Shown here one piece after another: positions 212 to 47,994 of a stretch of 49,419 nt of DNA. Below the pieces are notes generated by a model. That model made no database searches, had not been told where the DNA came from, and saw only the letters and a program-made list of their open reading frames with translations. A program made the translations under genes and the position numbers. Each line of letters begins with the position of its first letter. The first letter of the stretch is position 1. Origin of the DNA: Nanobdellota archaeon (GTDB taxonomy: Archaea; Nanobdellota; Nanobdellia; Woesearchaeales; WJIZ01); contig JAUSJW010000112.1 in the NCBI GenBank assembly GCA_030647105.1, forward strand, positions 1 to 49,419, given 5' to 3'.

Positions 212-1105
212 CTAGTTTATCTCATGAATAACTTCGAAGGGCTTGGGGGACAAGGGAGATTGCGGACACCGGTTCATTCCAAAGTGGAAGATACTATAAG
301 CGAGGTTATCTCCAAGGCTTTCAAAAGCTTTTGTTTGCGAAGAGTAGAGGTTAATCCCTTCTATTTTCGCGCTAAACGCTCGCTCAGGAAGTGCTATTTC
401 ACGTTTAGTCAGATGTAACCCGTCATACCGTTCAGCAAGCAGAGTATCCAGTGTTATGTCACCGTCACCGAACCTTGTGTAGGTGTACGGCAAATCCTCA
501 TAGAAATAACCATGCGCGTTAGTATGGCTGGTAGTCGTTATAGCACGCACAAAAGATTGAGACACCAAGAGATGGTCAGCATGGGTGACTTTGTCGCCAA
601 AATAAGCGGGGCCAATAACAACCACAGGAGCGCCGTTTACTGAATCAATAATCTGAGTGATATCCCCTGTTATTGAGTTGATAAGGGAAGTGTTGTCTGA
701 ATCTGACCTTGTTTCATACTGATTATCCACATACCCCAGATTGATAGCGCGGGCTCCGAGCAGATTCGCGGCGTTGGCATTTTCTTGTTTGCGGGTTTCG
801 TTCGCTTCAGTGCTATTATTAAATCCTGACCGCACATCCCAGTTTGTCAGGTAGTGCACGGTGGTCGGCGGCGCGGCGAAAAACGTGACGATGTATTTTG
901 GCCCGTCAAATGCGGAGATGATGCCACCGACAGATAACACCGCGTCATCAAAATGAGGCGATAACACGATAAGCGTAGTTTCTTGTACTTCGGGGGTTGC
1001 GGCCTCCTTTTGAGAATATTCGGGCATCCCCGCTCCTTGAGTAGCGCATCCGCCAAGCGCTAGAAGTAGTCCATTCCTCACGATTCTAGCTAACTTGTTA
1101 CCCAT
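212..1105 (-). CDS. PIG-L/LmbE-family N-acetylglucosaminyl deacetylase, probable lipoprotein
   Basis: 297-aa ORF with a lipobox-like N-terminus (LLLALGGC). It carries the PIG-L signature LSPHFDDAVLSVGG and a later HADH motif. Two TTATAAAC boxes (1129-1136, 1142-1149) sit about 25-40 nt upstream of ATG 1105. The gene looks more AT-rich than its neighbours. Confidence 0.75.
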   Translation of the reverse strand: MGNKLARIVRNGLLLALGGCATQGAGMPEYSQKEAATPEVQETTLIVLSPHFDDAVLSVGGIISAFDGPKYIVTFFAAPPTTVHYLTNWDVRSGFNNSTEANETRKQENANAANLLGARAINLGYVDNQYETRSDSDNTSLINSITGDITQIIDSVNGAPVVVIGPAYFGDKVTHADHLLVSQSFVRAITTTSHTNAHGYFYEDLPYTYTRFGDGDITLDTLLAERYDGLHLTKREIALPERAFSAKIEGINLYSSQTKAFESLGDNLAYSIFHFGMNRCPQSPLSPKPFEVIHEIN

Positions 1106-1201
1106 GTTGGTTAGGAGGGGACCATAGCTTATAAACGCGTGTTATAAACACCGCGGAATGGCCTCTTCTCGTGGAGTTTTGGCATCGCTCATTTTTTCAA
1201 T

Positions 1202-2491
1202 TCATATCCGTTTTACGATTTCATAGAGTATGCTTACCTGGCGTTCTACCGATTGCTCATCAGGATGGAATGTTCCATGAAGAGCGCCAGCATCGTTCCC
1301 TCCAGAAGTAAAGAAGTGCAGGATGCGCTCTGCGCCCGGAGGGTAAAGCGAAGGGTCAGCCCAGGGCAAAGAGATAGGCCCGGCCCACGCCGTTTCATCT
1401 CTAAACTTTGCAGCTTCCGGTTTGACCGTTAATCCGAGCGCTGCTGCGGATTCGCGCGCAATCCTCACAAGGCCGCTGTCGTTGACAACAGGAGGCGCTT
1501 CAAGCTCAATGGTGGCGTCATGCGTTTCCATGAACTTGTGAAACATTCCTAACGCATATTCTCCAACAATGCGGCTGATGCCTGTCACGGTAGCATGCTC
1601 TGCCAAGCTATTTAATTCGCAAGGGGAGGTTTCAACCCTGCTCGCTTCGACGTGCCCATAGCTTCCGTCCGGCAGCCACGCGAACATTCTTTTGAGGAGC
1701 ATCAAATCATTACGGAAGTCAAGTTCAGCATTCAGGGGATTTTTTCCCTGCCAAGGGAGCGCTGCGTGCGCCGAAACGCCCTCACTCTTGTACGTAAACC
1801 GGTATGCCGCCGCCGTTCCAAACCCTTCGCTGATGCGCGCTTCTCCGTCTTTAAGGGACGTGTCGATATGGCACGACACAATGGCTGGAGCGTCATGATA
1901 AATCCCCTTTGCTCGCAAATATTGCCCGCCTCCGAACCCCTTCGGATGAACATACCCATCGTGCGCGTTGCCAGGGCCTTCCTCGGCGGGCTGGAAGATG
2001 AAGCCGACATCTTCGATTCCATTTTCCTTCAGGCGCCGAGCGAGTGTGAGCATGCTCGCCATGTTCACCGCATGCCCGCAATGATGGCCATAGAAACCAC
2101 TGCCTAGCGAGATAGCGTCGAGGTCGCAGCGGAGGTAGACTTTCGGAGAGTCTTTTCCAGCCATAACCAGTTCTGTTTCATGTGGTTTTTGCCCTGAGCG
2201 CGCGTCAAGCCGGAATCCAAGAGACAGCATCGCGTCTCCGATAAAACTTGCAGTGCCATACTCTCTATAAGAGGGTTCAGCGAGCCTTTGCAGAACTTCA
2301 ACGATATTCTGCGGGTGAACGGGCATCGCGTCTGAAAGCTCTTTCCGCCACGGTTCTTGGGTGGAGACGCGTTCACGTTGCACCTCGGCCCACAACTCAT
2401 GCTTCTCTTCAACTGCAGTCGTATAGGGAAACGAATACTGAATCGCGAATACGCGACTCGCGTGGACGGGTGCGGGATGTTCCTTGTTCAT
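1202..2491 (-). CDS. M20-family amidohydrolase/peptidase (aminoacylase/hippurate-hydrolase type)
   Basis: Motifs HCGHAVN and FIFQPAEEG are typical of M20D enzymes. The ORF-track start at 2497 is GTG; the first ATG is at 2491 (MNKEHPAP). Confidence 0.8.
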   Translation of the reverse strand: MNKEHPAPVHASRVFAIQYSFPYTTAVEEKHELWAEVQRERVSTQEPWRKELSDAMPVHPQNIVEVLQRLAEPSYREYGTASFIGDAMLSLGFRLDARSGQKPHETELVMAGKDSPKVYLRCDLDAISLGSGFYGHHCGHAVNMASMLTLARRLKENGIEDVGFIFQPAEEGPGNAHDGYVHPKGFGGGQYLRAKGIYHDAPAIVSCHIDTSLKDGEARISEGFGTAAAYRFTYKSEGVSAHAALPWQGKNPLNAELDFRNDLMLLKRMFAWLPDGSYGHVEASRVETSPCELNSLAEHATVTGISRIVGEYALGMFHKFMETHDATIELEAPPVVNDSGLVRIARESAAALGLTVKPEAAKFRDETAWAGPISLPWADPSLYPPGAERILHFFTSGGNDAGALHGTFHPDEQSVERQVSILYEIVKRI

Positions 2492-2673: not shown

Positions 2674-3429
2674 ATGGACACCTCCATCCTTGAAGACCTC
2701 GGCCTCACAGGCGCGGAAATCAAGGTCTTCCTCGCGCTTTTAGAGCTGGGTTCGACGAACGCCGGAAGCGTAGTCGAGAAATCAGGCCTGCAGAACGCCG
2801 TTGTGCACCGCGCCTTCCACTCGCTCGCCGAAAAGGGCCTGGTGAGCTCGATTCTGGAGGGGAAAATCAGGCGCTACAGCGCCGCGAATCCCTCCCACCT
2901 TCTTGAGTTTGTCGACGAGAAAAAATCGCGGCTTCAGACCTTGCTCCCGGAATTGGAACTCAAGCGAAAAATGGCGAAAACAGCCCCCCAAGCCACGCTG
3001 TTCCAGGGCGTTCGCGGCACCAAGGAACTCTTGTACAGCCTGCTTGAGACAGGGGGAAAAGAATATGCCTCGTATGGCGGCCCCATACAATCAAATGAGG
3101 CGCTAGGCGAATATTTCTGGGAATCGTTCCATAATCGAAGAATCAAGAAAGGAGTAACAGCGAAACTGCTCTTCCACACTTCATTGAATTCTTGGGGGGT
3201 CCAGCTGAGCAAGAAAAAGAAAACCCAGGTCCGCCTCACTTCTCAAGCGCTGGAAGGCCTCACGGAAACGATTATTTGCGGCAATCGGGTCGGGATTGTT
3301 CTTTGGATGGAAAAGCCGTATGGATTTCTCATGGAAGATAAGGCAGTCGCGGACTCGTATCGCAAATTCTTCGATGTGCTCTGGAATTCAGCGCCCGAGA
3401 CGCGGTCCTTGAAGGAGGAAAAATGGTAA
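2674..3429 (+). CDS. TrmB-family transcriptional regulator
   Basis: The N-terminal winged HTH (LGLTGAEIKVFLALLELGSTNAGSVVEKSGLQNAVVHRAFHSLAEKGLV) followed by a coiled linker and C-terminal domain is the typical TrmB layout. Confidence 0.8.
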   Translation: MDTSILEDLGLTGAEIKVFLALLELGSTNAGSVVEKSGLQNAVVHRAFHSLAEKGLVSSILEGKIRRYSAANPSHLLEFVDEKKSRLQTLLPELELKRKMAKTAPQATLFQGVRGTKELLYSLLETGGKEYASYGGPIQSNEALGEYFWESFHNRRIKKGVTAKLLFHTSLNSWGVQLSKKKKTQVRLTSQALEGLTETIICGNRVGIVLWMEKPYGFLMEDKAVADSYRKFFDVLWNSAPETRSLKEEKW

Positions 3430-5075
3430 GGAAGAATGTAGTTAAGAGGCGCTCTCGTATGGGCAATGTCCGCGCGCAGGTGAGCGCCTTCCTTATCATC
3501 TCGATTCTGGCCGCAGCCATCATCGCCGGAGCGTACCTCCTCCGTGACTCCTCGTCTACAAACCAAGGCGAAACAGTTAGCGACACAGCCCTCTCTGAAC
3601 AGTTTGAGCGCCTGCCCATTCGCAACGCCATCGAAGCATGCGTCGATAAAACCGCGATGGACGGCATCGCGCTCCTAGGGGCGCAAGGCGGATACCTCCA
3701 GCTTGAGCCGATTTTGAGCGCTTATCAGACCGCGTATTGGTATCTCGACCAGGTCAATGTCCAGCCGACTCTTGAAGAGATGCGGCTCAGGCTAGAATCG
3801 TATCTGAACACACATCTTCCTTCCTGCGTCGATTTCAGCTCGTTCAGGGCGCAGGGATTTGGCATCGTCTCCGGCGCGGTTCAGAGCGCGGTCTCGTTCA
3901 ACAAGGAAGATGTCACCGTGGGCATTGTCTATCCTGTCCAGGTGGAAAACAATGTTCAACTGAGCCGCGAGGAGCGCTTCACCTCGACGCTCGACGTGCG
4001 CTTCAGAAGGATATTCGAAGCCGCCTCGACGCTGGTCAACATTCAGCTTGATCCTCGCTTTGACTTCACGCGGCCGCTCGCCCTGGCTCCACTCGGTAAA
4101 TTCCAGGTGGATGTGCGTCCCGAAACTGACACGCTAGTCTATACCTTAACAGACCCCCAACCGACAAGATGGGGGACCCATATGCAAATGCGCTTTGCCA
4201 GTCGATTTCAGAAATCTGAACTCGACAGGAGCCTGCGGCTCCACCCGGGAAGCAATACCCAGCAGTTGTTTTTCCCCCTCACGCTCTATTCTGTTGACCG
4301 GCTCGCGGAATTACACCTCTTGCCTGGAACGACGGTCTCCCTCAATTCAGGGCCCGTGCAAACACTGACCGTCGAACGGCAAGACCTCACAGAGATTACC
4401 AGACCCAATACTCCCTTCATCGAGCACGCCGACGATTCTGTCACGTATGGCGACCTCACCTGGCAGCTTACCTACCCACAATATAGTTTTGGTCCCGCGG
4501 GGACGCGTTTTAACCAGCCAGAGAATCTGCGTATCTATTGGGACGAGGAAAAGACGCCTCATGTTGGAAATATGGGCTTGTTATACCAGTCGGGCGATGT
4601 CCTGCGCCCGATTCCCTGCAAGGTGAACTATCAGGAGTACTATGTGGAGGCGCAAATTATCGGGTTTAGCGAATATGTCCCCATAGATTGCGGGGTGCTG
4701 GGGCCCAAAGCGGTGAGCGCAAAGGCTGAGAACAAGCCCAGTGTCCCTCTCTGTCTCGTTCTTTCTACCTTGGCTATAGTCTCAACGGTGCTGGATTTTA
4801 TCACTTTTGGTCTCATCGACCCTGATTTTCCGGCGAAGCTTGCCGGGTATCGCAGCGAAGAGAACTGCATCAACTTCGTCCCGGCTTGCGACCAGACAGT
4901 CAGTGTGTATGGAGACGAAAAAGACGGTGATGGTTCCTGCTCCCTCAAAGAAGGGGCTAACAATGTGAACGGGGGGAATGAAATCAAATTTTGCGCCAAG
5001 ATCAAGAAGTGTGACAGGATGAGCCGCCTCCTCTGCAAGAAATGCAGTATGGAATGCTCGACGAGTTACGTATGA
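3423..5075 (+). CDS. Envelope protein with candidate class III (prepilin-like) signal peptide, a second hydrophobic segment and a Cys-rich C-terminal tail
   Basis: The ATG overlaps the TrmB stop (ATGGTAA). A basic leader is followed by RA-QVSAFLIISILAAAIIAG. The C-terminus has a hydrophobic stretch PLCLVLSTLAIVSTVLDFITFGLI and then many Cys residues. I recognise no family. Confidence 0.55.
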   Translation: MVRKNVVKRRSRMGNVRAQVSAFLIISILAAAIIAGAYLLRDSSSTNQGETVSDTALSEQFERLPIRNAIEACVDKTAMDGIALLGAQGGYLQLEPILSAYQTAYWYLDQVNVQPTLEEMRLRLESYLNTHLPSCVDFSSFRAQGFGIVSGAVQSAVSFNKEDVTVGIVYPVQVENNVQLSREERFTSTLDVRFRRIFEAASTLVNIQLDPRFDFTRPLALAPLGKFQVDVRPETDTLVYTLTDPQPTRWGTHMQMRFASRFQKSELDRSLRLHPGSNTQQLFFPLTLYSVDRLAELHLLPGTTVSLNSGPVQTLTVERQDLTEITRPNTPFIEHADDSVTYGDLTWQLTYPQYSFGPAGTRFNQPENLRIYWDEEKTPHVGNMGLLYQSGDVLRPIPCKVNYQEYYVEAQIIGFSEYVPIDCGVLGPKAVSAKAENKPSVPLCLVLSTLAIVSTVLDFITFGLIDPDFPAKLAGYRSEENCINFVPACDQTVSVYGDEKDGDGSCSLKEGANNVNGGNEIKFCAKIKKCDRMSRLLCKKCSMECSTSYV

Positions 5076-6718
5076 AGACTGCAATCATGATTGGTTTAGG
5101 GGTGGTGCTCTTGGCGATAGCGCTGCTGAAGCCCTCAACCACTGGATTTGCCAGTGTCGACCCGGTAGGATGCTGTGCCACTGTCTGCCAGCAGACCCCC
5201 TCTTTGGGCTGTCCCGACGGGTTTTACGCGGGCAGGGACTGCAAGGAAGTGGCGGCGTGCGAAGTCGGATGCTGCATAGACCGCGAAGGGTATTGTTTGG
5301 GCAACTACTTGAGATCAAATTGCGCGAAGGCGGAAGGGGAGTTCATCTTGATTTCTGAATGTAAAGAGACCTTAGTCTGCCTCCAAGAAAAAGACGCCGC
5401 CTCTTTGCAAGGCCCCACAGGATACGTCGCTAAGTACCGCTCCTCTGACAAAGGCGCGGGTTTCACCTGGCCCAGCGCGGGGAAACGAGGGGACAGCGTC
5501 CTCATCGGGATGCAGGACTTCGGCACCGCGCAACAGGTCGAGGCAGAACTCTCCATAGGGGCCTACCAAGAACGATTTGCGCTCTATGACGACGGCTCGC
5601 ATGGGGATGGAGAGCCTCAAGACCAGCTCTGGGCGGCAGTCTGGCAGAGCGCAAGGGCGCCAGCACTGAGCGGGATATCGCCTGTGCAAATCAGCTTTCG
5701 AGTTGATGGCGAGCCCGGCAGTTCGGCGGTCTTTTTCCTCTCTTCAACTGATTGCGTTCCCTATCGCATGCCCTGGTCTGACCCGGGAGCGAGGAAAGAT
5801 ATTGTCCTTGTCGACGCTATCAACACTCCGCACTTCGCGGCGAGCGCTGACAGCCTGGTACGCCAGCTCGAAACAAGATACGGAACTGGCCTCGATCAGG
5901 CGAATGTCTATGCTCTGAAATTGCCAGCCACCACTTCAGACCGCGCTGAAATCAGGAGCGCTGTCTTGTCAGCCTGCCCCTTCTTTGACTCTGCGCAAGA
6001 TAGCGTCGTTGCGTTTTCGGCGATAGACGCGTGCGAGCAAGATGGGGAACTGGTCGTCGTGAATCCCCTTTTCGGGTTCAGGGAGGCGATAGCGCAGGAG
6101 TCCCTTTCAGACCTCCTCGCGCGGTTCTGCGACACCGCGGTCACGCAGTCGATGGTCGAGCAAGAGATTCAGGATTCACTTGAGGATATTCCCGTTCGGA
6201 TACTCGCTCCACTGCCGGGTTTGTTCACCTCCCAGCAGCTGCTCTTCTCGTTTATCGTTGACGAAGACAGTGATGCCTCTTTGTCTTATACAATCTATCT
6301 CGACACTTATGACCCCGCTATGGTACTGGCTCAGGGGAGCGCATCCGCCAACAGCCAAATTGATTCCGCGCTCACGGTCATCGATGGTACGCATGACCTC
6401 ATCTTAGAAGTGGAGGACTCCGAAGGCCGCAAAGGGTACGCGAGCGTGGAGGTCAACATGGATGAAGCGAATTTCATCGCGGATGCGCAATTCGAAGCAA
6501 CCTCGGCCACGCTCACCTTCACGCATCTCTCGGATTTTTCAGTCACCTACCAGATTCTTGGCGACGGAGAACTCATGAGTTCAGGCTCCGCGAACGTCGA
6601 AGCTCCAGAGTACGTCGCGCTCAATCTCGCGCAAGGAACGCACACGCTCCAGGTTGTCGCTGAGGACAGCGCGGGAAGAAAGGCGCTCACAATTCCGGAA
6701 GAGGTGGAGGTTCCATGA
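5072..6718 (+). CDS. Membrane-anchored/secreted Cys-rich protein with two Ig-like C-terminal repeats
   Basis: I place the start at ATG 5072, which overlaps the upstream stop (ATGA), giving MKTAIMIGLGVVLLAIALL. A Cys-rich block follows (GCCATVCQQ...CEVGCCIDREGYC). Two similar segments occur near the C-terminus (...GTHDLILEVEDSEGRK... and ...GTHTLQVVAEDSAGRK...). Confidence 0.55.
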   Translation: MKTAIMIGLGVVLLAIALLKPSTTGFASVDPVGCCATVCQQTPSLGCPDGFYAGRDCKEVAACEVGCCIDREGYCLGNYLRSNCAKAEGEFILISECKETLVCLQEKDAASLQGPTGYVAKYRSSDKGAGFTWPSAGKRGDSVLIGMQDFGTAQQVEAELSIGAYQERFALYDDGSHGDGEPQDQLWAAVWQSARAPALSGISPVQISFRVDGEPGSSAVFFLSSTDCVPYRMPWSDPGARKDIVLVDAINTPHFAASADSLVRQLETRYGTGLDQANVYALKLPATTSDRAEIRSAVLSACPFFDSAQDSVVAFSAIDACEQDGELVVVNPLFGFREAIAQESLSDLLARFCDTAVTQSMVEQEIQDSLEDIPVRILAPLPGLFTSQQLLFSFIVDEDSDASLSYTIYLDTYDPAMVLAQGSASANSQIDSALTVIDGTHDLILEVEDSEGRKGYASVEVNMDEANFIADAQFEATSATLTFTHLSDFSVTYQILGDGELMSSGSANVEAPEYVALNLAQGTHTLQVVAEDSAGRKALTIPEEVEVP

Positions 6719-7536
6719 ACAAACTATCCCTCCTTCCTTTGCTCGCCCTCCTCCTGATAGCGACAGCGTACGCTGACAAGGCGTACCAAGTGAATCTGGT
6801 CGTTTTCGACAGTGAGCTCGCGTTCAGTGGTGTGCGGCTCATCGAAGGGGAACCCTTTGCTCCTTCTACAGGCGATAAGACATTTACTGCGGAGGTCTGG
6901 GATCAGGCAGGGGTGGTACTTGCGACAACAGGGTTCTCTTCCTCGCTCAATGGCCCGCTTGAAGTCTTTATCCCCTACCAGCCCAGAGGCGCTACCATCG
7001 CGGTGCGTGATGAGGGGCAGAAAGAGCTCTTCAGATTCACGGTGCTTCCGTTCGCGGACACGTGCGGCGATACGCAATGCGACGCCCAGGAAAGCCGAGA
7101 AACCTGCCCCAGGGATTGCCCAGGCGGCGGAAAGGATGATTTTTGCGACAAAGAGCGTGATGGGGTTTGCGACCCGGACTGTGGCAGCCTTGATGAGGAC
7201 TGCGACGCGCGGCCTGTTGTGAGCACATCTCCTCTCGCCCCTCCGCCTGTCAAAACCCCTACCTTGAAAAAAGTCGTTTCGAAAACCCCGCCACAACAAA
7301 GCCCCGCCGGAAGCATGCTCGGAATGCTTGTCGGAGCCATCGCGCTCTCTATGGCGGTTCTCACCGCGGGCGGATGGGTCATCGTAAGAAAAAAAGGGCA
7401 GGAGAAGAAGATGCTCCGCTCCACCATCGCGAACTGGATGCGGGCGGGCTACGCGCCGATGCAAATACGGCAGGCGCTCGCGCAGAAGAACTATCCAGGA
7501 AAAGTTATTGATAGCCTTTTTGAGGAGCTGCGCTGA
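6715..7536 (+). CDS. Secreted protein with a Cys/Asp-rich module, Pro-rich stalk and C-terminal TM anchor
   Basis: ATGA overlap with the upstream stop. Signal peptide LLPLLALLLIATAYA. Module CGDTQCDAQESRETCPRDCPGGGKDDFCDKERDGVCDPDCGSLDEDCD. PPPVKTPT linker, then TM segment MLVGAIALSMAVLTAGGWVIV. Confidence 0.55.
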   Translation: MNKLSLLPLLALLLIATAYADKAYQVNLVVFDSELAFSGVRLIEGEPFAPSTGDKTFTAEVWDQAGVVLATTGFSSSLNGPLEVFIPYQPRGATIAVRDEGQKELFRFTVLPFADTCGDTQCDAQESRETCPRDCPGGGKDDFCDKERDGVCDPDCGSLDEDCDARPVVSTSPLAPPPVKTPTLKKVVSKTPPQQSPAGSMLGMLVGAIALSMAVLTAGGWVIVRKKGQEKKMLRSTIANWMRAGYAPMQIRQALAQKNYPGKVIDSLFEELR

Positions 7537-38389: not shown

Positions 38390-38505
38390 TGCGTCGGCCG
38401 GGATTCGAACCCGGATCAAAAGCTGTCTTTGCGTAAGCAAAGGCCCAGGAAGGCCGCTGCCTGACGTGTGGAAGGCTTCTATCCTAGCCGTTGGACTACC
38501 GACGC
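38390..38505 (-). tRNA. tRNA-Gly (anticodon TCC) with a 44-nt intron at the canonical 37/38 position
   Basis: Minus-strand cloverleaf: acceptor GCGTCGG/CCGACGC, D arm GTCC/GGAT, anticodon arm GAAGC-CTTCCA[intron]A-GCTTT, T arm CCGGG-TTCGAAT-CCCGG. The intron contains hairpins GGCC/GGCC and CTTTGC-TTAC-GCAAAG. The TATA (reverse complement of about 38530-38541) lies about 30 nt upstream. Confidence 0.8.
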
Positions 38506-42920: not shown

Positions 42921-43706
42921 ATGGCCTTCCGGACTAGAATTGGATTTCTCGGCGCTGGCAATATCGCGGAAGCGATGATTGGCCGGCTGTATACAGACTC
43001 CTCTTTTGACGTCGCGGCGAGCAGGAGGGACGCAGCAAAACTCGAGGAGCTTGGCAAAAAATATGGCGTGGAAACCTACTCTAGCAACCGCGGCCTTGTT
43101 GAGCGCTCGGATGTTGTCGTTCTGGGAATAGAGCCTTCTTCGCTTGCGGCTGTATTAAAAGAGGTGCATGGGCAGCAGGCGAAGCTCTGGATTTCGCTCG
43201 TCAACGGCGCGTCGCTTGCTTATTTGCAGCAGTCGCTAGGGAAGCAGGCGCTCGTGCGTGCCATGCCTCAGATAGGATTCAAGTACGGGCACAGCGTAAC
43301 GTGGTACGCGGCAAATGGAGATTGTGCGCAAGGCGATATCGCGCTGGCGGAGCGCGTCTTCGCGGCAGGCGGCATTTCGAGGCGCATAGGGGAAAGCCAG
43401 ATGAACGCGGCGACGGCTTTCTCGTGCGAGCCCGGCCTTCTTGTGCAGGACTTGATAGCGGACCAAAAAGCGCTGGATGGCGAAGGTCTTAAGGTAGACG
43501 CGCAGGCACTCGCTTATCTCCTGAGAGGCACCGCGTCCAAAATCGAGGAGCTTGGCATTAAGGGGGCGTCAGCCTCTGTCGCGACGAAAGGTGGCTCGAC
43601 AGAGGCCGCGCATCGCTTTGCTGAAGGGAAGGGGTTGTATGCCCTGCGAGAACAGCGAGTTTCAGCTTGCGTCAGGAAGAGCGAGGAACTCTCGAGAAAA
43701 ACATAG
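42921..43706 (+). CDS. proC: Pyrroline-5-carboxylate reductase
   Basis: Rossmann N-terminus IGFLGAGNIAEAMI and a C-terminal dimerisation-domain pattern. ATG at 42921 (GTG at 42918 is also possible). Confidence 0.8.
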   Translation: MAFRTRIGFLGAGNIAEAMIGRLYTDSSFDVAASRRDAAKLEELGKKYGVETYSSNRGLVERSDVVVLGIEPSSLAAVLKEVHGQQAKLWISLVNGASLAYLQQSLGKQALVRAMPQIGFKYGHSVTWYAANGDCAQGDIALAERVFAAGGISRRIGESQMNAATAFSCEPGLLVQDLIADQKALDGEGLKVDAQALAYLLRGTASKIEELGIKGASASVATKGGSTEAAHRFAEGKGLYALREQRVSACVRKSEELSRKT

Positions 43707-44886
43707 CCAATTTCGTCTGCCTCAATTGGCTGAGCAACTTGCTTTCGCGCAGCATCCCGTCCGGAAGGAAGCCAAACTCGCTTTGTATTTTTTTTCTTAT
43801 ATATTCCAGCATCAGCTCCTTGGAGCCGAACTGCAGCGGTTGTGAGCGCATCGCGTTCCGCGCCGCCTCCCGTGTGACCCAAACGCCGAGCGGTGCGGTA
43901 TACTCTTCCGTGATGACGCGAATCGCGAGCACAGACGCCTGCCGTTTCAACTCTCGCAATTTCTCTAAGATACCGAGCCTCACGGTATAATACCCGCCAG
44001 CAGTCTCTTCGGCATAGCTAGTCCTTCCCCGGTTCGCTTCGAAGTCTGTCGACCACGTCAGCTCCTGGTTCCGAGGCACGAACGTTTCGAAGAGCTCATA
44101 GCTCCATCTCTCCGGGAAGAGCAAGACAAAGTAGTAGTTCCCGAGATGTGACCCGGTGAAGAGCAAATAATCCGCTTCAGGATAATCCCGAATCTCCTTG
44201 ATGATGTGTTTCCCCAGCATGTCATCGGTCGCCGTAATCGACCATCGTGTGGGCACTAGCTTCCGATTCTCTCCAATCCCCAGCGTCCCGACAGAGAGCA
44301 GCTTGGACAGGAAGTTCTCGTCAAACCCTTTGTCGTAAAGGGAAGTCACCGCTCCCACCGCCTTGAGGTCAGTATCGTCCACTGCCTTATCAACGCGGAC
44401 GTCAATGTGCGGATTCGACGTGAGTTCCGCCTTCTTCAGCCGGGCGTTCGGCCCCATAGGGGCAAGATGGCTGTCAGGGGTCAGCGTAAACCGCGGCACG
44501 CTCTCAAGCGAGATGTCTACATCAGTCGGCCGGGAAGCCATCCCAATCTCCTGCGCCAAAGTCAGGAACTTATCCCGCTCATGAACGTTCACCTTCTTTG
44601 AGCTATTCACGAGCTCTGAGCGGAAATCGATGATGCGGGGAATGGCGTACTTTTGCGCTGCCCAGTGCTTTGGGGCGTCATACTCCCAAGCGTTCTCCTG
44701 CCGTTCGGGAGGCGAGAGGATACCCACATTGACGTCCGGATACCCAAACCGCCCAACAAAAGGGGCTGGGGAATTGGATTGAAACTCAGGCTTCAGCACC
44801 TGCTTCACCTTGAAGATAGACCTCTTCTTGGAGCACAGCGGACAAGTGCAATCTGGGCTGTCAGTATGGACATACGAGAGACGCAT
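43672..44886 (-). CDS. nreA: Nre-family (NreA-like) archaeal DNA repair protein
   Basis: N-terminal Cys motif CTCPLC, then SPAPFVGRFGYPDVNVGILSPP and LVPTRWSITATD, as I recall for Nre_N/Nre_C. ATG 44886 lies 27 nt from the TATA at 44909-18. Confidence 0.65.
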   Translation of the reverse strand: MRLSYVHTDSPDCTCPLCSKKRSIFKVKQVLKPEFQSNSPAPFVGRFGYPDVNVGILSPPERQENAWEYDAPKHWAAQKYAIPRIIDFRSELVNSSKKVNVHERDKFLTLAQEIGMASRPTDVDISLESVPRFTLTPDSHLAPMGPNARLKKAELTSNPHIDVRVDKAVDDTDLKAVGAVTSLYDKGFDENFLSKLLSVGTLGIGENRKLVPTRWSITATDDMLGKHIIKEIRDYPEADYLLFTGSHLGNYYFVLLFPERWSYELFETFVPRNQELTWSTDFEANRGRTSYAEETAGGYYTVRLGILEKLRELKRQASVLAIRVITEEYTAPLGVWVTREAARNAMRSQPLQFGSKELMLEYIRKKIQSEFGFLPDGMLRESKLLSQLRQTKLAMFFSRVPRSS

Positions 44887-44968
44887 AGCCAAACGGAGGG
44901 TAGGCGGGCATAAATAGCTTTGGGGGAGGCACTGGACACGTAACGCGGAGAGGTGGACAGCAGTCGTT

Positions 44969-45038
44969 GCGGCTGGTCAGCCGGGGGAAGCCCCCCTCGG
45001 GGTGGCTGACGAGGGCTGCGGAGCAGCCCGACAGCCGC
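44969..45038 (+). ncRNA. Structured three-way-junction element, copy A (unassigned family)
   Basis: P1 GCGGCTG/CAGCCGC; P2 GTCAGCC/GGCTGAC; GA; P3 GGGCTGC/GCAGCCC; GA. A paralogue at 46717-46795 carries compensatory P1 changes. The strand choice is tentative and based on the GA/GA junction. Confidence 0.45.
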
Positions 45039-45116
45039 CAAACACTCAAAACCGTCGTTTTCTTGTCTCCAATCGCTTTTGGGAAGCCTTATAAACGTCC
45101 TAACCTGCCTTTCCTT

Positions 45117-46163
45117 GTGAAAGGCCTGACCGAGGAGGAGCTGGAATCCATCCGCAAAGAATTGCGGCAGTGCAAGAAGCCCCTCTTTTTCTACGATGAT
45201 GACGCGGATGGCGTGACGAGCTTCCTTTTGCTCTACCGCTGGGTCAAGGAAGGCAAGGGCATCATCGTCAAGAGCAAGCCGACCGTGGACGAGAGCTTCG
45301 CGAGAAAAGTCGAAGAGCTCGATCCGGACAAGGTGTTTGTGCTCGACATGGCTGTCATGACTGAGGAGTTTGTCGCGGCCTGTCATCGCCCCATCATCTG
45401 GATTGACCACCACCAGCCCCTCCGGCTCGACAATGTCAAGTATTTCAACCCGCGAAAGCACGTTTCAGATATCGTCTATCCTACTTCCAACATCTGCTAC
45501 GACATCGTCCAGCAAGACCTGTGGCTCGCGATGGTCGGCTGTGTGGGCGATTGGCACCTTCCCTATTTCACAAAAGAGTTCTGCAAGCAGTACCCCGACC
45601 TGTTGAACGCGGATGTCAAGAACCCCGACGACGCCTTATTCGACTCCAAGATAGGAAAACTAGTGCATATCGTGAGCTTCCTGCTCAAAGGCGATACCAA
45701 GGAAGTGAAGAAGTGCGTCGAAATGCTCGGGAAAGTCCAGTCGCCCTACGAGATTCTCAATCAAGAGACAGATGCGGGCAAGTATCTGGTGAAGAAATAC
45801 GAAGCCCTCTCGCACGATTACCGCAAGCTCCTGCAGGAAGCGAAGAAGAAGGCGGGCAAGGGTAAGCTGCTTGTTTTCGCTTACAACGATGATAGGATGA
45901 GTTTCACGAGCGAGCTCTCGAATGAGCTCCTCCACATCCACCCCGATAAACTTGTTATCATCGCGCGCAAAAAGGACGGCTCGATGCGCATGAGCCTGCG
46001 CTGTTCCTGGGCCAATATTCCTCCGATGCTGGATAAGGCGCTTTCGGGTCTGCAGGGAAGGGGCGGCGGGCATGAGCACGCCTGCGGAGCCGATGTTGCC
46101 GCCGAACAGTTCGACGAGTTTCTCCAGCGGCTCGAGAAATTAGCGGATGAAGAGAAGAAGTAA
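45117..46163 (+). CDS. DHH/DHHA1-family phosphoesterase (RecJ/NrnA-like)
   Basis: FFYDDDADG, IWIDHHQP and GGGHEHACGA motifs. I place the start at in-frame GTG 45117, about 25 nt downstream of the TATA at 45089-45096. The track start at 44967 lies upstream of that TATA. Confidence 0.8.
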   Translation: MKGLTEEELESIRKELRQCKKPLFFYDDDADGVTSFLLLYRWVKEGKGIIVKSKPTVDESFARKVEELDPDKVFVLDMAVMTEEFVAACHRPIIWIDHHQPLRLDNVKYFNPRKHVSDIVYPTSNICYDIVQQDLWLAMVGCVGDWHLPYFTKEFCKQYPDLLNADVKNPDDALFDSKIGKLVHIVSFLLKGDTKEVKKCVEMLGKVQSPYEILNQETDAGKYLVKKYEALSHDYRKLLQEAKKKAGKGKLLVFAYNDDRMSFTSELSNELLHIHPDKLVIIARKKDGSMRMSLRCSWANIPPMLDKALSGLQGRGGGHEHACGADVAAEQFDEFLQRLEKLADEEKK

Positions 46164-46350
46164 CGTAAATTTTATATACTGGGTTCTGTCTTCTTCCTTC
46201 TATGACGTTTGCTTGCGACTTGATGCGTAAGATTCCGCTTGCCTAAAGGCTAGCGCATCGTCCCGATTTCTTCAACACGCGTTTCGCGACGTGGTGTCTT
46301 TTTATCGCCGTGTATGATGATTTCTAGAGGATGCGTGTGCCACCCCGACC

Positions 46351-46692
46351 ATGACAGAACTCGACGAACACGCGAAGGCGTTCCTGAACGCGCTTGATTT
46401 TTACGGCGAAGATACTGCCAAGGAGATTCGGGCGGCCCTCACCGAGTATCTGACTGCGATGGGCCTCTCGTCGCTCGCCGTCAGGTTCAGGCACGCGCAT
46501 CTCGAGCACCAGACCGCCCCCTTCGAGAATGTCGTCCGGATGCGCAATCCCCTCCCCCTCCTATGCCTCCAGCCCGGCTACCTGAAAGAAGGCAAATCTC
46601 CTGTCGGGTTAGTCGCCGCTCTCAAGGAAGCCTATTTCGAGAAAGGCAACGTCCCCGAAGAGATGAGATGGCCGGATACGATACACTATTAG
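46351..46692 (+). CDS. Hypothetical protein (113 aa)
   Basis: ORF only; no family recognised. Confidence 0.45.
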   Translation: MTELDEHAKAFLNALDFYGEDTAKEIRAALTEYLTAMGLSSLAVRFRHAHLEHQTAPFENVVRMRNPLPLLCLQPGYLKEGKSPVGLVAALKEAYFEKGNVPEEMRWPDTIHY

Positions 46693-46716
46693 GGGAGATG
46701 TGCTAACGTAAGTAGG

Positions 46717-46795
46717 AGCCAGTTGGCGCCGGTCAGCCAATTTTCTTGGCTGACGAGGGCTCGAAGAGCCCGACGGCGCCTTCCTCTAACTGGCT
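46717..46795 (+). ncRNA. Structured three-way-junction element, copy B (with an extra outer stem)
   Basis: Outer stem AGCCAGTT/AACTGGCT; P1 GGCGCCG/CGGCGCC; P2 GTCAGCC/GGCTGAC; GA; P3 GGGCTC/GAGCCC; GA. Lies between two convergent gene ends. Confidence 0.45.
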
Positions 46796-46804
46796 ATTTA
46801 GCAA

Positions 46805-46936
46805 TTAAATCGTTCGCTTCTTCATATCCTTAACTTTCTTCTCGCTCACCGGAATGTCCGAATTCTCGTCAATATCCATATCCCGCTCAGCCTCTTCCCA
46901 CGCTTGCCGCAATTTCCTATTGAGTTTGTTATCCAT
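46805..46936 (-). CDS. Candidate small ORF (43 aa), coupled to the HD gene
   Basis: My own translation: MDNKLNRKLRQAWEEAERDMDIDENSDIPVSEKKVKDMKKRTI. Its ATG overlaps the HD gene stop (ATGGATAA). Too short for the ORF track and supported by nothing else. Confidence 0.25.
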   Translation of the reverse strand: MDNKLNRKLRQAWEEAERDMDIDENSDIPVSEKKVKDMKKRTI

Positions 46937-47456
46937 GCGTCATCCCCTCCACTTCGTCTTTTAAAGCGATAAACCTATCAACTTGGTCAGGCAGTTCTTG
47001 AGTATACCGTTCCACAACCGCGGAGAACGGCTTTTCCACATGCCCGAAAACCAAATTGTCCGCGTGCGCGATGATTTTCTCTTCTTTTGAAACAGGAACG
47101 TACTCTTGAGGGGGCAAAGGCAGCTTCTTTGCGAGAATTTCCTTTTTTGTAATCCCTGCCCCGATATGTCGCTCAGCGATGAGCGCCAACGATTCAGGAA
47201 GCCCCTCTTTTCTCAAAATCTCCCCTCCAATGATTCCGTGCTTTATCCCTTCCTTTCCCAGTCCAGCTTTATACCTGCCAATATCATGCAATAAACTTCC
47301 AATCCGAATCAGCTCAAGGTCGACTCCAGGCACCTGTTTCCCAATCCTCAGCGCAATCTCCTTCACTTTCTGCACATGCGCGAGAATCTTGTGGAAAATC
47401 TCATCGCTAGTGATATGCTTCCGTAAGAGCGCGACAGCCTGTTCTTCGGTAATCAT
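46929..47456 (-). CDS. HD-domain metal-dependent phosphohydrolase
   Basis: LLHDIGR and the HxxxxxD pattern. TATA (47476-87, minus sense) lies 25 nt upstream. Confidence 0.8.
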   Translation of the reverse strand: MITEEQAVALLRKHITSDEIFHKILAHVQKVKEIALRIGKQVPGVDLELIRIGSLLHDIGRYKAGLGKEGIKHGIIGGEILRKEGLPESLALIAERHIGAGITKKEILAKKLPLPPQEYVPVSKEEKIIAHADNLVFGHVEKPFSAVVERYTQELPDQVDRFIALKDEVEGMTHG

Positions 47457-47756
47457 AATGTTGTTAGGAGAACCACTCTTTTAAGGGTTTCTAAAAGAGA
47501 AGCGATTCCAACGTATCCATAGGATTCTAAGTCATTCCTTTTCAAAAAGAAAGCCTTCGGCGGGGTACGATTATTTTTTAGGGCAGAACCCTGAACGGGA
47601 TTGCTTCAAGATTACATTCCCCTAAGCAAATCAAACAAATCAAGAATCACGTCAATCCCGTAGACCATCCGGAAGCGCAAGAGGACGTTGGAAGCGATAA
47701 TCAAGAGAATCAGGATCCAGACACTTCGTTTGGCCTTCTTGGAATACATAAGTAAG

Positions 47757-47948
47757 AGGGGGCCCGAAGGCCCCCTTAGGTTATTTCGTGAAAGATGGCT
47801 TGCGCCATCCGATGAGCGAAGGCAGGCAGGACTCCTGCCTGCCAAAATCCTCTTTTTCCCTAAGTCGTGGGAACGTAAGGTAGGAAAAGGAAAGGCTCCT
47901 GCCATTGTTTGTGGGGGGTGGTTAAGAACAAGGGGAGCAGGAGCCTTT
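47757..47948 (-). other. Cluster of three strong GC-rich hairpins in a 0.5-kb stretch without a convincing gene
   Basis: H1 at 47757-47776 has an 8-bp stem; on the minus strand the loop is a C(UUCG)G tetraloop. H2 at 47821-47843 has a 10-bp stem and 3-nt loop. H3 pairs 47891-47902 with 47937-47948 (12 bp, 34-nt loop). Confidence 0.6.
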
Positions 47949-47994
47949 GAATGGGAGGAGCGATGCCTGGCAACGCTTCATGCTAGCGCTCTAG

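Follow-up and report, generated by a model that had tools for sequence, protein, structure and literature searches.

REP/BIME elements are short, GC-rich, extragenic palindromes that are scattered over bacterial genomes and differ between close relatives (Di Nocera et al. 2013, PMC3733652). They are found mostly 3' of genes or between convergent genes and occasionally within ORFs, they can work as RNA hairpins if transcribed, and both REPs within genes and REP dimers within short palindromes have been documented in bacteria (PMC3733652). The element analysed here, of which two copies (A and B) lie in a 49,419-nt stretch of DNA from a Nanobdellota archaeon (contig JAUSJW010000112.1, hereafter the window), resembles them in these respects, and a REP dimer nested in a short palindrome, being an outer palindrome with two hairpins, has the same three-way topology. 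It differs in being archaeal (DPANN), whereas REPs have been described in bacteria, in a copy number that appears low here, and in its fixed three-helix unit with GA/GA junction bases, as against a single hairpin of 20-40 bp. Nor does it carry the unpaired GTAG/CGTC terminal tag of REPs, the CGTC string of its minus strand being mostly paired. No RAYT, transposase, HUH or Y1 genes were seen in the window or in related loci.

The element can also be compared to MITEs, since it is small, non-coding, bounded by inverted repeats, dispersed and insertion-polymorphic, and bears signs of nested insertion. A terminal inverted repeat is present, namely the helix P1, which is perfect over 7 bp and short for a MITE; unlike MITEs, the element is not accompanied by a target-site duplication, no parent IS is known, and the 7-bp terminal repeat varies between copies by compensated changes. 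IS200/IS605-type (PATE-like) derivatives have subterminal hairpins, insert 3' of a fixed short target and lack terminal repeats and target-site duplications; the TTG 5' of all three close copies, too few to define a target, and the missing duplication would be compatible with this, while neither the window nor the related loci showed a TnpA or TnpB. The integron attC site was considered and rejected, as the element ends in GGCGCCG/CGGCGCC or GCGGCTG/CAGCCGC and not in RYYYAAC ... GTTRRRY. At a smaller scale, the tip of the third helix reads GCGGAGC in copy A and in a copy from a related genome (L013), and C(GAA)G in copy B, which makes these tips GNA mini-hairpins, d(GCGNAGC), a motif that two papers (PMC13037366, PMC3201870) describe as exceptionally stable in DNA; here it is a motif inside the element and does not correspond to a genomic element family.

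Architecture and setting of the two window copies

The features of both copies and their neighbours are as follows, L152 and L153 being loci of two related genomes described below.

44969-45038, plus strand: copy A, whole three-way-junction element, 70 nt, read directly; minimum-free-energy (MFE) fold as RNA and as DNA
44969-75 and 45032-38: copy A P1, GCGGCTG / CAGCCGC
44976-82 and 45004-10: copy A P2, GTCAGCC / GGCTGAC, with a 21-nt interior
44983-45003, plus strand: interior of copy A P2, GGGGGAAGCCCCCCTCGGGGT, a 21-nt G/C-run missing from copy B
45013-19 and 45023-29: copy A P3, GGGCTGC / GCAGCCC, loop GGA
45011-12 and 45030-31: the unpaired GA dinucleotides of copy A
46725-46780, plus strand: copy B, whole three-way-junction element, 56 nt, read directly; MFE fold as RNA and as DNA
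46725-31 and 46774-80: copy B P1, GGCGCCG / CGGCGCC
46732-38 and 46748-54: copy B P2, same 7-mers as in copy A, 9-nt loop AATTTTCTT
46757-62 and 46766-71: copy B P3, GGGCTC / GAGCCC, loop GAA
46755-56 and 46772-73: the unpaired GA dinucleotides of copy B
46717-46795, plus strand: optional outer helix of copy B, AGCCAGTT (46717-24) pairing with AACTGGCT (46788-95) over a 7-nt bulge
44966-44968, plus strand: TTG directly 5' of P1, kept at copy A, copy B (46722-24) and the L013 copy
43672-44886, minus strand: nre (archaeal Nre_N/Nre_C; Pfam 2.3e-79, 2.2e-28), left neighbour of copy A
44909-18: TATA box of nre, conserved in L152
45089-96: TATA box of the DHH gene, conserved in L152
45117-46163, plus strand: DHH/DHHA1 phosphoesterase gene (Pfam) with GTG start, right neighbour of copy A
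46351-46692, plus strand: ORF113, no Pfam match, orthologues in L152 and L153
46805-47456, minus strand: convergent genes on the right of copy B, a called 43-aa ORF (46805-46936) and an HD-domain protein (46929-47456)

Copy A is thus ordered GCGGCTG / GTCAGCC / 21 nt / GGCTGAC / GA / GGGCTGC GGA GCAGCCC / GA / CAGCCGC, and its 21-nt interior can form two small hairpins that are mutually exclusive. Copy B has in common with it P2, both GA dinucleotides and the base of P3, and the two P1 helices differ at three pairs, each of them compensated on the partner strand. The initial annotation had reported these shared parts and the compensated P1 changes, and its coordinates and strings for the two copies, its TATA strings and its T-rich run (45057-65) are correct on direct reading. 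The fold that it proposed is likewise borne out: the three-way junction is both the MFE and the centroid structure of copy A (-46.9 kcal/mol, z -3.8) and of copy B (-38.4 kcal/mol, z -6.3), and none of 200 shuffles folded as well. The optional outer helix of copy B is an 8-nt perfect match that does not go beyond shuffles (52 of 200 were as good), and it has no equivalent at copy A or at the L013 copy. Within the window, the 14-mer GGCTGACGAGGGCT has exact matches in copies A and B only, its matches with three mismatches being at chance level, and a sequence-free descriptor of three-way junctions with 14 of 14 positions paired retrieved only these two copies from the roughly 0.25-1 Mb examined.

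As a whole, the window is ordinary chromosomal sequence from a DPANN archaeon and encodes CorA, adenylate kinase, TruD, GatD/E, thermosome, FtsY, PRPP synthetase, RNase HII, SMC and glycosyltransferases. Because copy A is flanked by two conserved divergent TATA boxes, it probably belongs to neither of the adjacent mRNAs and is probably untranscribed; the start of the DHH gene was set by homologues of 345-354 aa. A near-symmetric TATA box lies 51 nt from copy A, and the copy is followed by GTTTTCTTG. Copy B starts 32 nt past the ORF113 stop codon. When the flanks of copies A, B and L013 are aligned, nothing is shared except the TTG, and their flanking bases hold no direct repeat that could be a target-site duplication. 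T-rich tracts of varying strength lie downstream of the three copies.

Other features of the window were noted in passing. The 190-nt spacer between the DHH gene and ORF113 (46164-46350) has its own TATA-like TTTTATATA (46170-78), and a weak C/D-box-like match (SNORD39, E = 5.4) spans 46309-46374, with AUGAUGA at 46314-20. From the HD gene to the next gene (47457-47994) there are about 540 nt without a credible ORF, and within them a perfect 11-bp palindrome, GGCAGGCAGGA T TCCTGCCTGCC (47821-47843). Farther away are a tRNA gene with a 46-nt intron on the minus strand (38390-38505; Rfam tRNA, 54.3 bits) and three successive large ORFs of 550, 558 and 273 aa (3423-7536), without a Pfam match at 1e-5.

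Further copies, empty sites and a divergent relative

Genome scans were run with three exact DNA patterns on one genome per species (185,579 species) and were complemented by a protein-based locus search. They yielded one further copy, in the Woesearchaeota MAG RIFCSPLOWO2_01_FULL_53_31, which is the closest genome and congeneric (Nre 85% identical); this copy (L013) is identical in L088 and L177. All other pattern matches were rejected as chance, among them a 5'-half match on the Micrarchaeota contig L151, where the 3' half is absent and the same 17-mer occurs in many bacteria. No further copy was present among the 120 matches listed for the metagenome exact-pattern scan, nor in the viral pattern scan. 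A covariance model (R1) built from copies A, B and L013 scores copy A at 77 bits and copy B at 84 bits; with filters off it finds no divergent copies in the window, and none in addition over about 300 kb of loci from Woesearchaeota, Nanoarchaeia and Micrarchaeota. Another 5.6 kb of the sister species, reached through GatE, hold no copy. Copy B is carried identically by the Logan contig L139, and both L139 and L180 are identical to the window.

Two other conserved motifs were noted in other organisms. A family of about 110 nt, AAAGCGGATCTGAAGCGACCATGTGGAGGTCAGCCTGAGACGCCCGGCTGACGAGGGCAGCCGAAGGCCTCCGAGGACACAAGG...AACGAGGGAGCGAAGACCGCTTTGAAAG, is present in soil and sediment metagenomes (L028, L037, L046, L049, L071, L073, L074, L085, L092, L103); its ends pair mutually, it may hold an optional insert of about 110 nt, and it has no Rfam match. 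The conserved motif CCGTCAGCCCGTGGCCTGCGnnCCACGGGCTGACGAGGGCTGCGCCGTTnGAGGnAACGGCG, with two adjacent hairpins and again no Rfam match, is common to several Chloroflexota genomes (L010, L011, L012 and L086, from Chloroflexia / Limnocylindrales MAGs).

The L013 copy reads GGCGCCG / GTCAGCC / AAGTCTCTT / GGCTGAC / GA / GGGCTGC GGA GCAGACC / GA / CGGCGCC, so that it has the P1 and P2 of copy B and the P3 of copy A, except for a single uncompensated C-to-A change in P3. It occupies a non-orthologous locus, within the purL-x-purQ-purS cluster, about 29 nt past the purL stop codon and on the sense strand. It is nearly identical to copy B, even though intergenic DNA is otherwise unalignable between the two species. 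A called 176-aa lipoprotein-like ORF (L013:2432-2962, minus strand, equal to L177:12325-12855), whose start overlaps the purL stop as ATGA, reads in frame through the element (..GAGQPSLLADEGCGADRRR..), the 3' part of which codes the Arg-rich n-region of the signal peptide; only from residue 35 onwards is this ORF homologous to the L178 protein. About 17-25 nt ahead of the copy there is a TATA-like TTAAATTTT, and an oligo-T follows the copy.

The orthologous sites of related genomes are empty. In the nearest relative, L152, where DHH is 88% identical and the proC-nre-DHH synteny is kept, the nre-DHH spacer keeps both TATA boxes but has no element and is 90 nt long, the one of the window being 230 nt. 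What precedes the DHH orthologue of the RIFCS species (L140/L153) is a TrmB gene, then a TATA box and the start codon, without an element. After purL in L178 (purL 72% identical) the lipoprotein gene follows at 8 nt, without an element; this comparison uses L178 as the nearest retrievable relative and leaves out the purL orthologue P0122 (86% identity). Presence is thus documented at three loci in two species, and absence in L152, L140/L153 and L178. An element conserved in place does not agree with the lack of copy A in the orthologous spacer of L152 or with a third copy at an unrelated locus, itself missing from L178.

The same spacer invites some separate observations. In L152 (4402-4491) it contains GTCGGCGCCTCATCC, which is similar to the 3' terminus of copy B plus the adjoining flank (GACGGCGCC/TTCCTC). 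Being self-complementary, GGCGCC recurs as a direct repeat in the two P1 arms, and the resemblance could therefore be a deletion footprint or chance. In the Nanoarchaeota MAG Modern_marine.mb.241 (L142, about 2380-2560; Nre 57% identical) which is a distant relative, the nre-DHH spacer contains a palindromic element of 133 nt that has several stems and is unrelated in sequence; its outer stem has 16 bp (z -5.4), and a GGGCUUUAGCCC hairpin lies beside the 3' outer strand; in L143 and L152 this spacer is empty of such an element.

A divergent relative of copy A is also found in the RIFCS species, at L153:9469-9586, downstream of the ORF113 orthologue and co-oriented with it. Its first half reads GGCGCUGG / AUGCGAC / GGGGG...49 nt...CCCCCUUCGGGGU and its second half GGCGCAU / A / GGGCAACG CGUU CGUUGCCC / GU / CCAGCCGCC. 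It shares with copy A the 3' P1 strand and both ends of the P2 interior (GGGGG.. / ..CCCCCYTCGGGGT), between which an additional 49-nt hairpin insert is found. The alignment of the two scores 41.4 as compared to 28.7 +/- 4.4 for shuffles, 5 of 500 being as good, and the junction fold of the relative lies 3.5 kcal/mol above its MFE. Its P2 7-mers depart from those of copy A at four plus three positions, which amount to three double compensations and one A.G mismatch, and its P3 shows two double compensations; the junction bases are A and GU in place of GA/GA. Double substitutions thus total eight, three in P1 (copy A against copy B), three in P2 and two in P3 (copy A against the L153 relative). 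As the relative adds five compensated pairs, something maintains the helices, and the comparison of these sequences indicates that they are maintained over a longer divergence.

The relative lies in a 350-nt GC-rich non-coding spacer (L153:9317-9668, equal to L140 about 1000-1345, reverse strand) that separates the ORF113 orthologue from a response-regulator gene. This spacer is itself full of perfect hairpins, such as GGAAAUCU-A-AGAUUUCC and GGAAACC..GGUUUCC (fold z -2.65), and has no Rfam match.

Compensated substitutions and RNA-level explanations

Compensated substitutions can be produced by more than one process: the inverted repeats of mobile elements and palindrome-templated correction yield the same pattern, and palindromes may correct themselves by intrastrand templating. 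In the present element the helices are Watson-Crick throughout, without a single G.U among roughly 80 pairs, and for this reason the reverse strand folds just as well, at -45.8 kcal/mol for copy A and -38.2 kcal/mol for copy B as RNA, on par with the forward strand. Either strand as single-stranded DNA adopts the same junction (z -4.4 to -8.3). Since the arms are perfect Watson-Crick palindromes that fold as DNA and on both strands, compensation is no proof of RNA, and compensated changes are also expected of a DNA repeat, be it that a folded single strand is recognised or that the palindrome corrects itself. The argument of the initial annotation, that compensation reveals a selected structure, stands as far as the upkeep of the helices is concerned, which the five further double substitutions of the L153 relative reinforce; its extension to an RNA is not borne out.

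No known RNA family accounts for the element, which the initial annotation had not placed in one either. At the gathering threshold, Rfam 15 returned only two tRNAs over the whole window, both elsewhere; a permissive scan of 44600-47100 returned only a sub-threshold Hammerhead_II match in copy A, and ARAGORN found no tRNA or tmRNA gene in 44000-47500. The Hammerhead_II match (19.7 bits against a gathering score of 37, E = 0.93) has its CUGAUGA misaligned and does not recur in copy B, and the element remains under threshold for every Rfam hammerhead model. It is nevertheless true that the hammerhead core (Rfam clan CL00010) is also a three-way junction with CUGANGA, a G...C-closed helix, GA and an upstream GUC, and that the element offers as strings a CUGACGA, a G...C-closed helix and a GA corresponding to C3-A9, stem II and G12-A13, together with a GUC triplet after P1. 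As the DHH-ORF113 gene pair is flanked by two co-oriented copies, a degenerate or variant hammerhead-like motif could be thought to process its transcript by self-cleavage at both ends, but this is extremely improbable: A14 and A15.1 are absent, GAC and not GAAA follows P3 in all copies, and the CUGAC pairs with GUCAG in both the MFE and the centroid structures of the two copies, so that C3-A6 are base-paired and only GA is left free. Opening this pairing would give five unpaired bases for the single H17 and a shorter stem I; a single H17 cannot be put before stem I in any register, which leaves no proper cleavage-site geometry, and copy A lies upstream of the DHH promoter. A k-junction or k-turn bound by L7Ae, as the initial annotation had suggested, is a highly unlikely explanation too, although the host is archaeal, as its Nre domains indicate, and the element has, like the k-junctions of the TPP riboswitch and DUF-3268 (PMC4005666, PMC10573300), a three-way junction with 5'-GA-3' on both sides of one helix and a third helix leaving the would-be non-bulged strand. 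P3 would serve as NC helix, on which the G.A and A.G pairs could stack, P2 as C helix, and P1, which is contiguous with P2, as the third helix exiting the non-bulged strand. In the MFE and centroid folds, however, there is no 3-nt bulge (L1-L3) from the C helix P2 to the first G.A, and making one opens three P2 pairs; position 3b.3n would be a G-C Watson-Crick pair; there is no riboswitch or other conserved context; and the GA dinucleotides, which flank P3 in copies A, B and L013, give way to A and GU in the L153 relative. Moreover, k-junctions as known are not L7Ae ligands, the characterised ones not being folded by this protein (PMC10573300).

An RNA role outside these families has more in its favour. 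It could be argued that the element is a cis-acting RNA of 3' UTRs and intercistronic regions, which would block exonucleases, set 3' ends before oligo-T or bind a protein, its junction possibly having tandem sheared G.A pairs that extend P3. Each of the four copies has the orientation of its neighbouring gene, the L153 relative lying 3' of the ORF113 orthologue; copy B and the L013 copy begin at about 30 nt past a stop codon, the latter inside an operon; and T-rich tracts follow copies A, B and L013. Co-orientation, such post-stop starts and T-rich tracts are predicted by an RNA role and not by a strand-blind DNA element. The eight double substitutions that retain the helices and the unchanged GA/GA of the three close copies fit it as well. 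Against it speak the position of copy A between conserved divergent TATA boxes, where it is probably untranscribed, the empty orthologous sites of the nearest relatives, the lack of G.U with equally good antisense and DNA folds, the A and GU of the L153 relative and the absence of an Rfam match. The cis-acting RNA is accordingly a doubtful explanation but one with a real share of the probability, because of the co-orientation, the post-stop starts, the T-rich tracts, the constancy of GA/GA and TTG, and the fact that no target-site duplication was found, nor a transposase in the window and the related loci. A new DPANN-specific functional three-way-junction RNA, either with a G.A protein-binding junction or as a catalytic or processing motif with a hammerhead-related core, is improbable. 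Less probable still is a stand-alone gene for a small non-coding RNA with its own promoter: the structure is compact and very stable, and the L013 copy, with its TATA-like string upstream and oligo-T after it, and copy A, with the near-symmetric TATA box at one side and GTTTTCTTG after it, could each be read in that way, but no promoter-like element stands at a constant distance across the copies, their loci are not conserved, and several copies with variable P1 and P2 inserts are unlike a single conserved sRNA gene.

A proposed reading: the element as a dispersed palindromic repeat

The reading favoured here, which is held tentatively and falls somewhat short of being probable, is that of a rare, lineage-specific, dispersed nested palindrome of REP/MITE-like character, in which the fold and not the sequence is maintained. 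The element folds as a three-way junction, it is dispersed and polymorphic for insertion, its helices are kept by paired substitutions, and its distribution is narrow: it is confined to one Woesearchaeota genus, with a few copies to roughly 50 kb, at non-orthologous sites that are intergenic or at gene boundaries. A REP/MITE-like repeat is preferred to a conserved RNA because of this dispersal, the gain or loss between congeners, the strand-symmetric arms, the nested inserts and the restriction to one genus, and because copy A sits in a promoter spacer and the L013 copy inside an ORF, placements that are odd for a functional RNA. The nesting has support in the hairpin-forming insert of the copy A P2 loop and in the further 49-nt hairpin insert of the L153 relative. 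The GNA tips of P3, with their stability in DNA, also speak for this reading, as does the identity of P1 and P2 between copy B and the non-orthologous L013 copy. RNA function, if any, is probably secondary.

The proposed model is that the outer 7-bp inverted repeat (P1), by enclosing the P2 and P3 hairpins, would give a perfect three-way junction in any exposed single strand. The element would be propagated or maintained at the DNA level, as a non-autonomous unit, by an enzyme that may recognise the folded single strand; alternatively or additionally, its arms might be kept complementary through palindrome-templated correction. Where copies are transcribed, as copy B and the purL copy may be, the stable junction could act incidentally as a stabiliser of 3' ends or intercistronic regions, or as a roadblock, like bacterial REPs.

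Some of the evidence is at odds with a mobile repeat. There is no target-site duplication, the terminal repeat has just 7 bp, the window and the related loci showed no transposase, and the three close copies do not differ in their unpaired GA/GA or their 5' TTG. As there are only three close copies and one divergent one, the evidence base being four distinct element sequences (A, B, L013 and the L153 relative), mobility is deduced from presence and absence at 72-88% protein identity.

If the dispersed palindrome is confirmed, DPANN genomes would harbour a REP/MITE-like structured repeat with an unusual, fixed three-helix architecture; a limited literature search found no description of REP/MITE-like elements in reduced DPANN genomes. 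If a functional RNA motif were true instead, its dispersal would reflect recruitment at many transcript ends and not selfish spread, and the element would be a new archaeal cis-element. The case also calls for caution, as compensated changes between two copies of a perfect palindrome fit a selected RNA and a palindrome kept at the DNA level alike. Either way, the general impact of so tiny a family would be modest.
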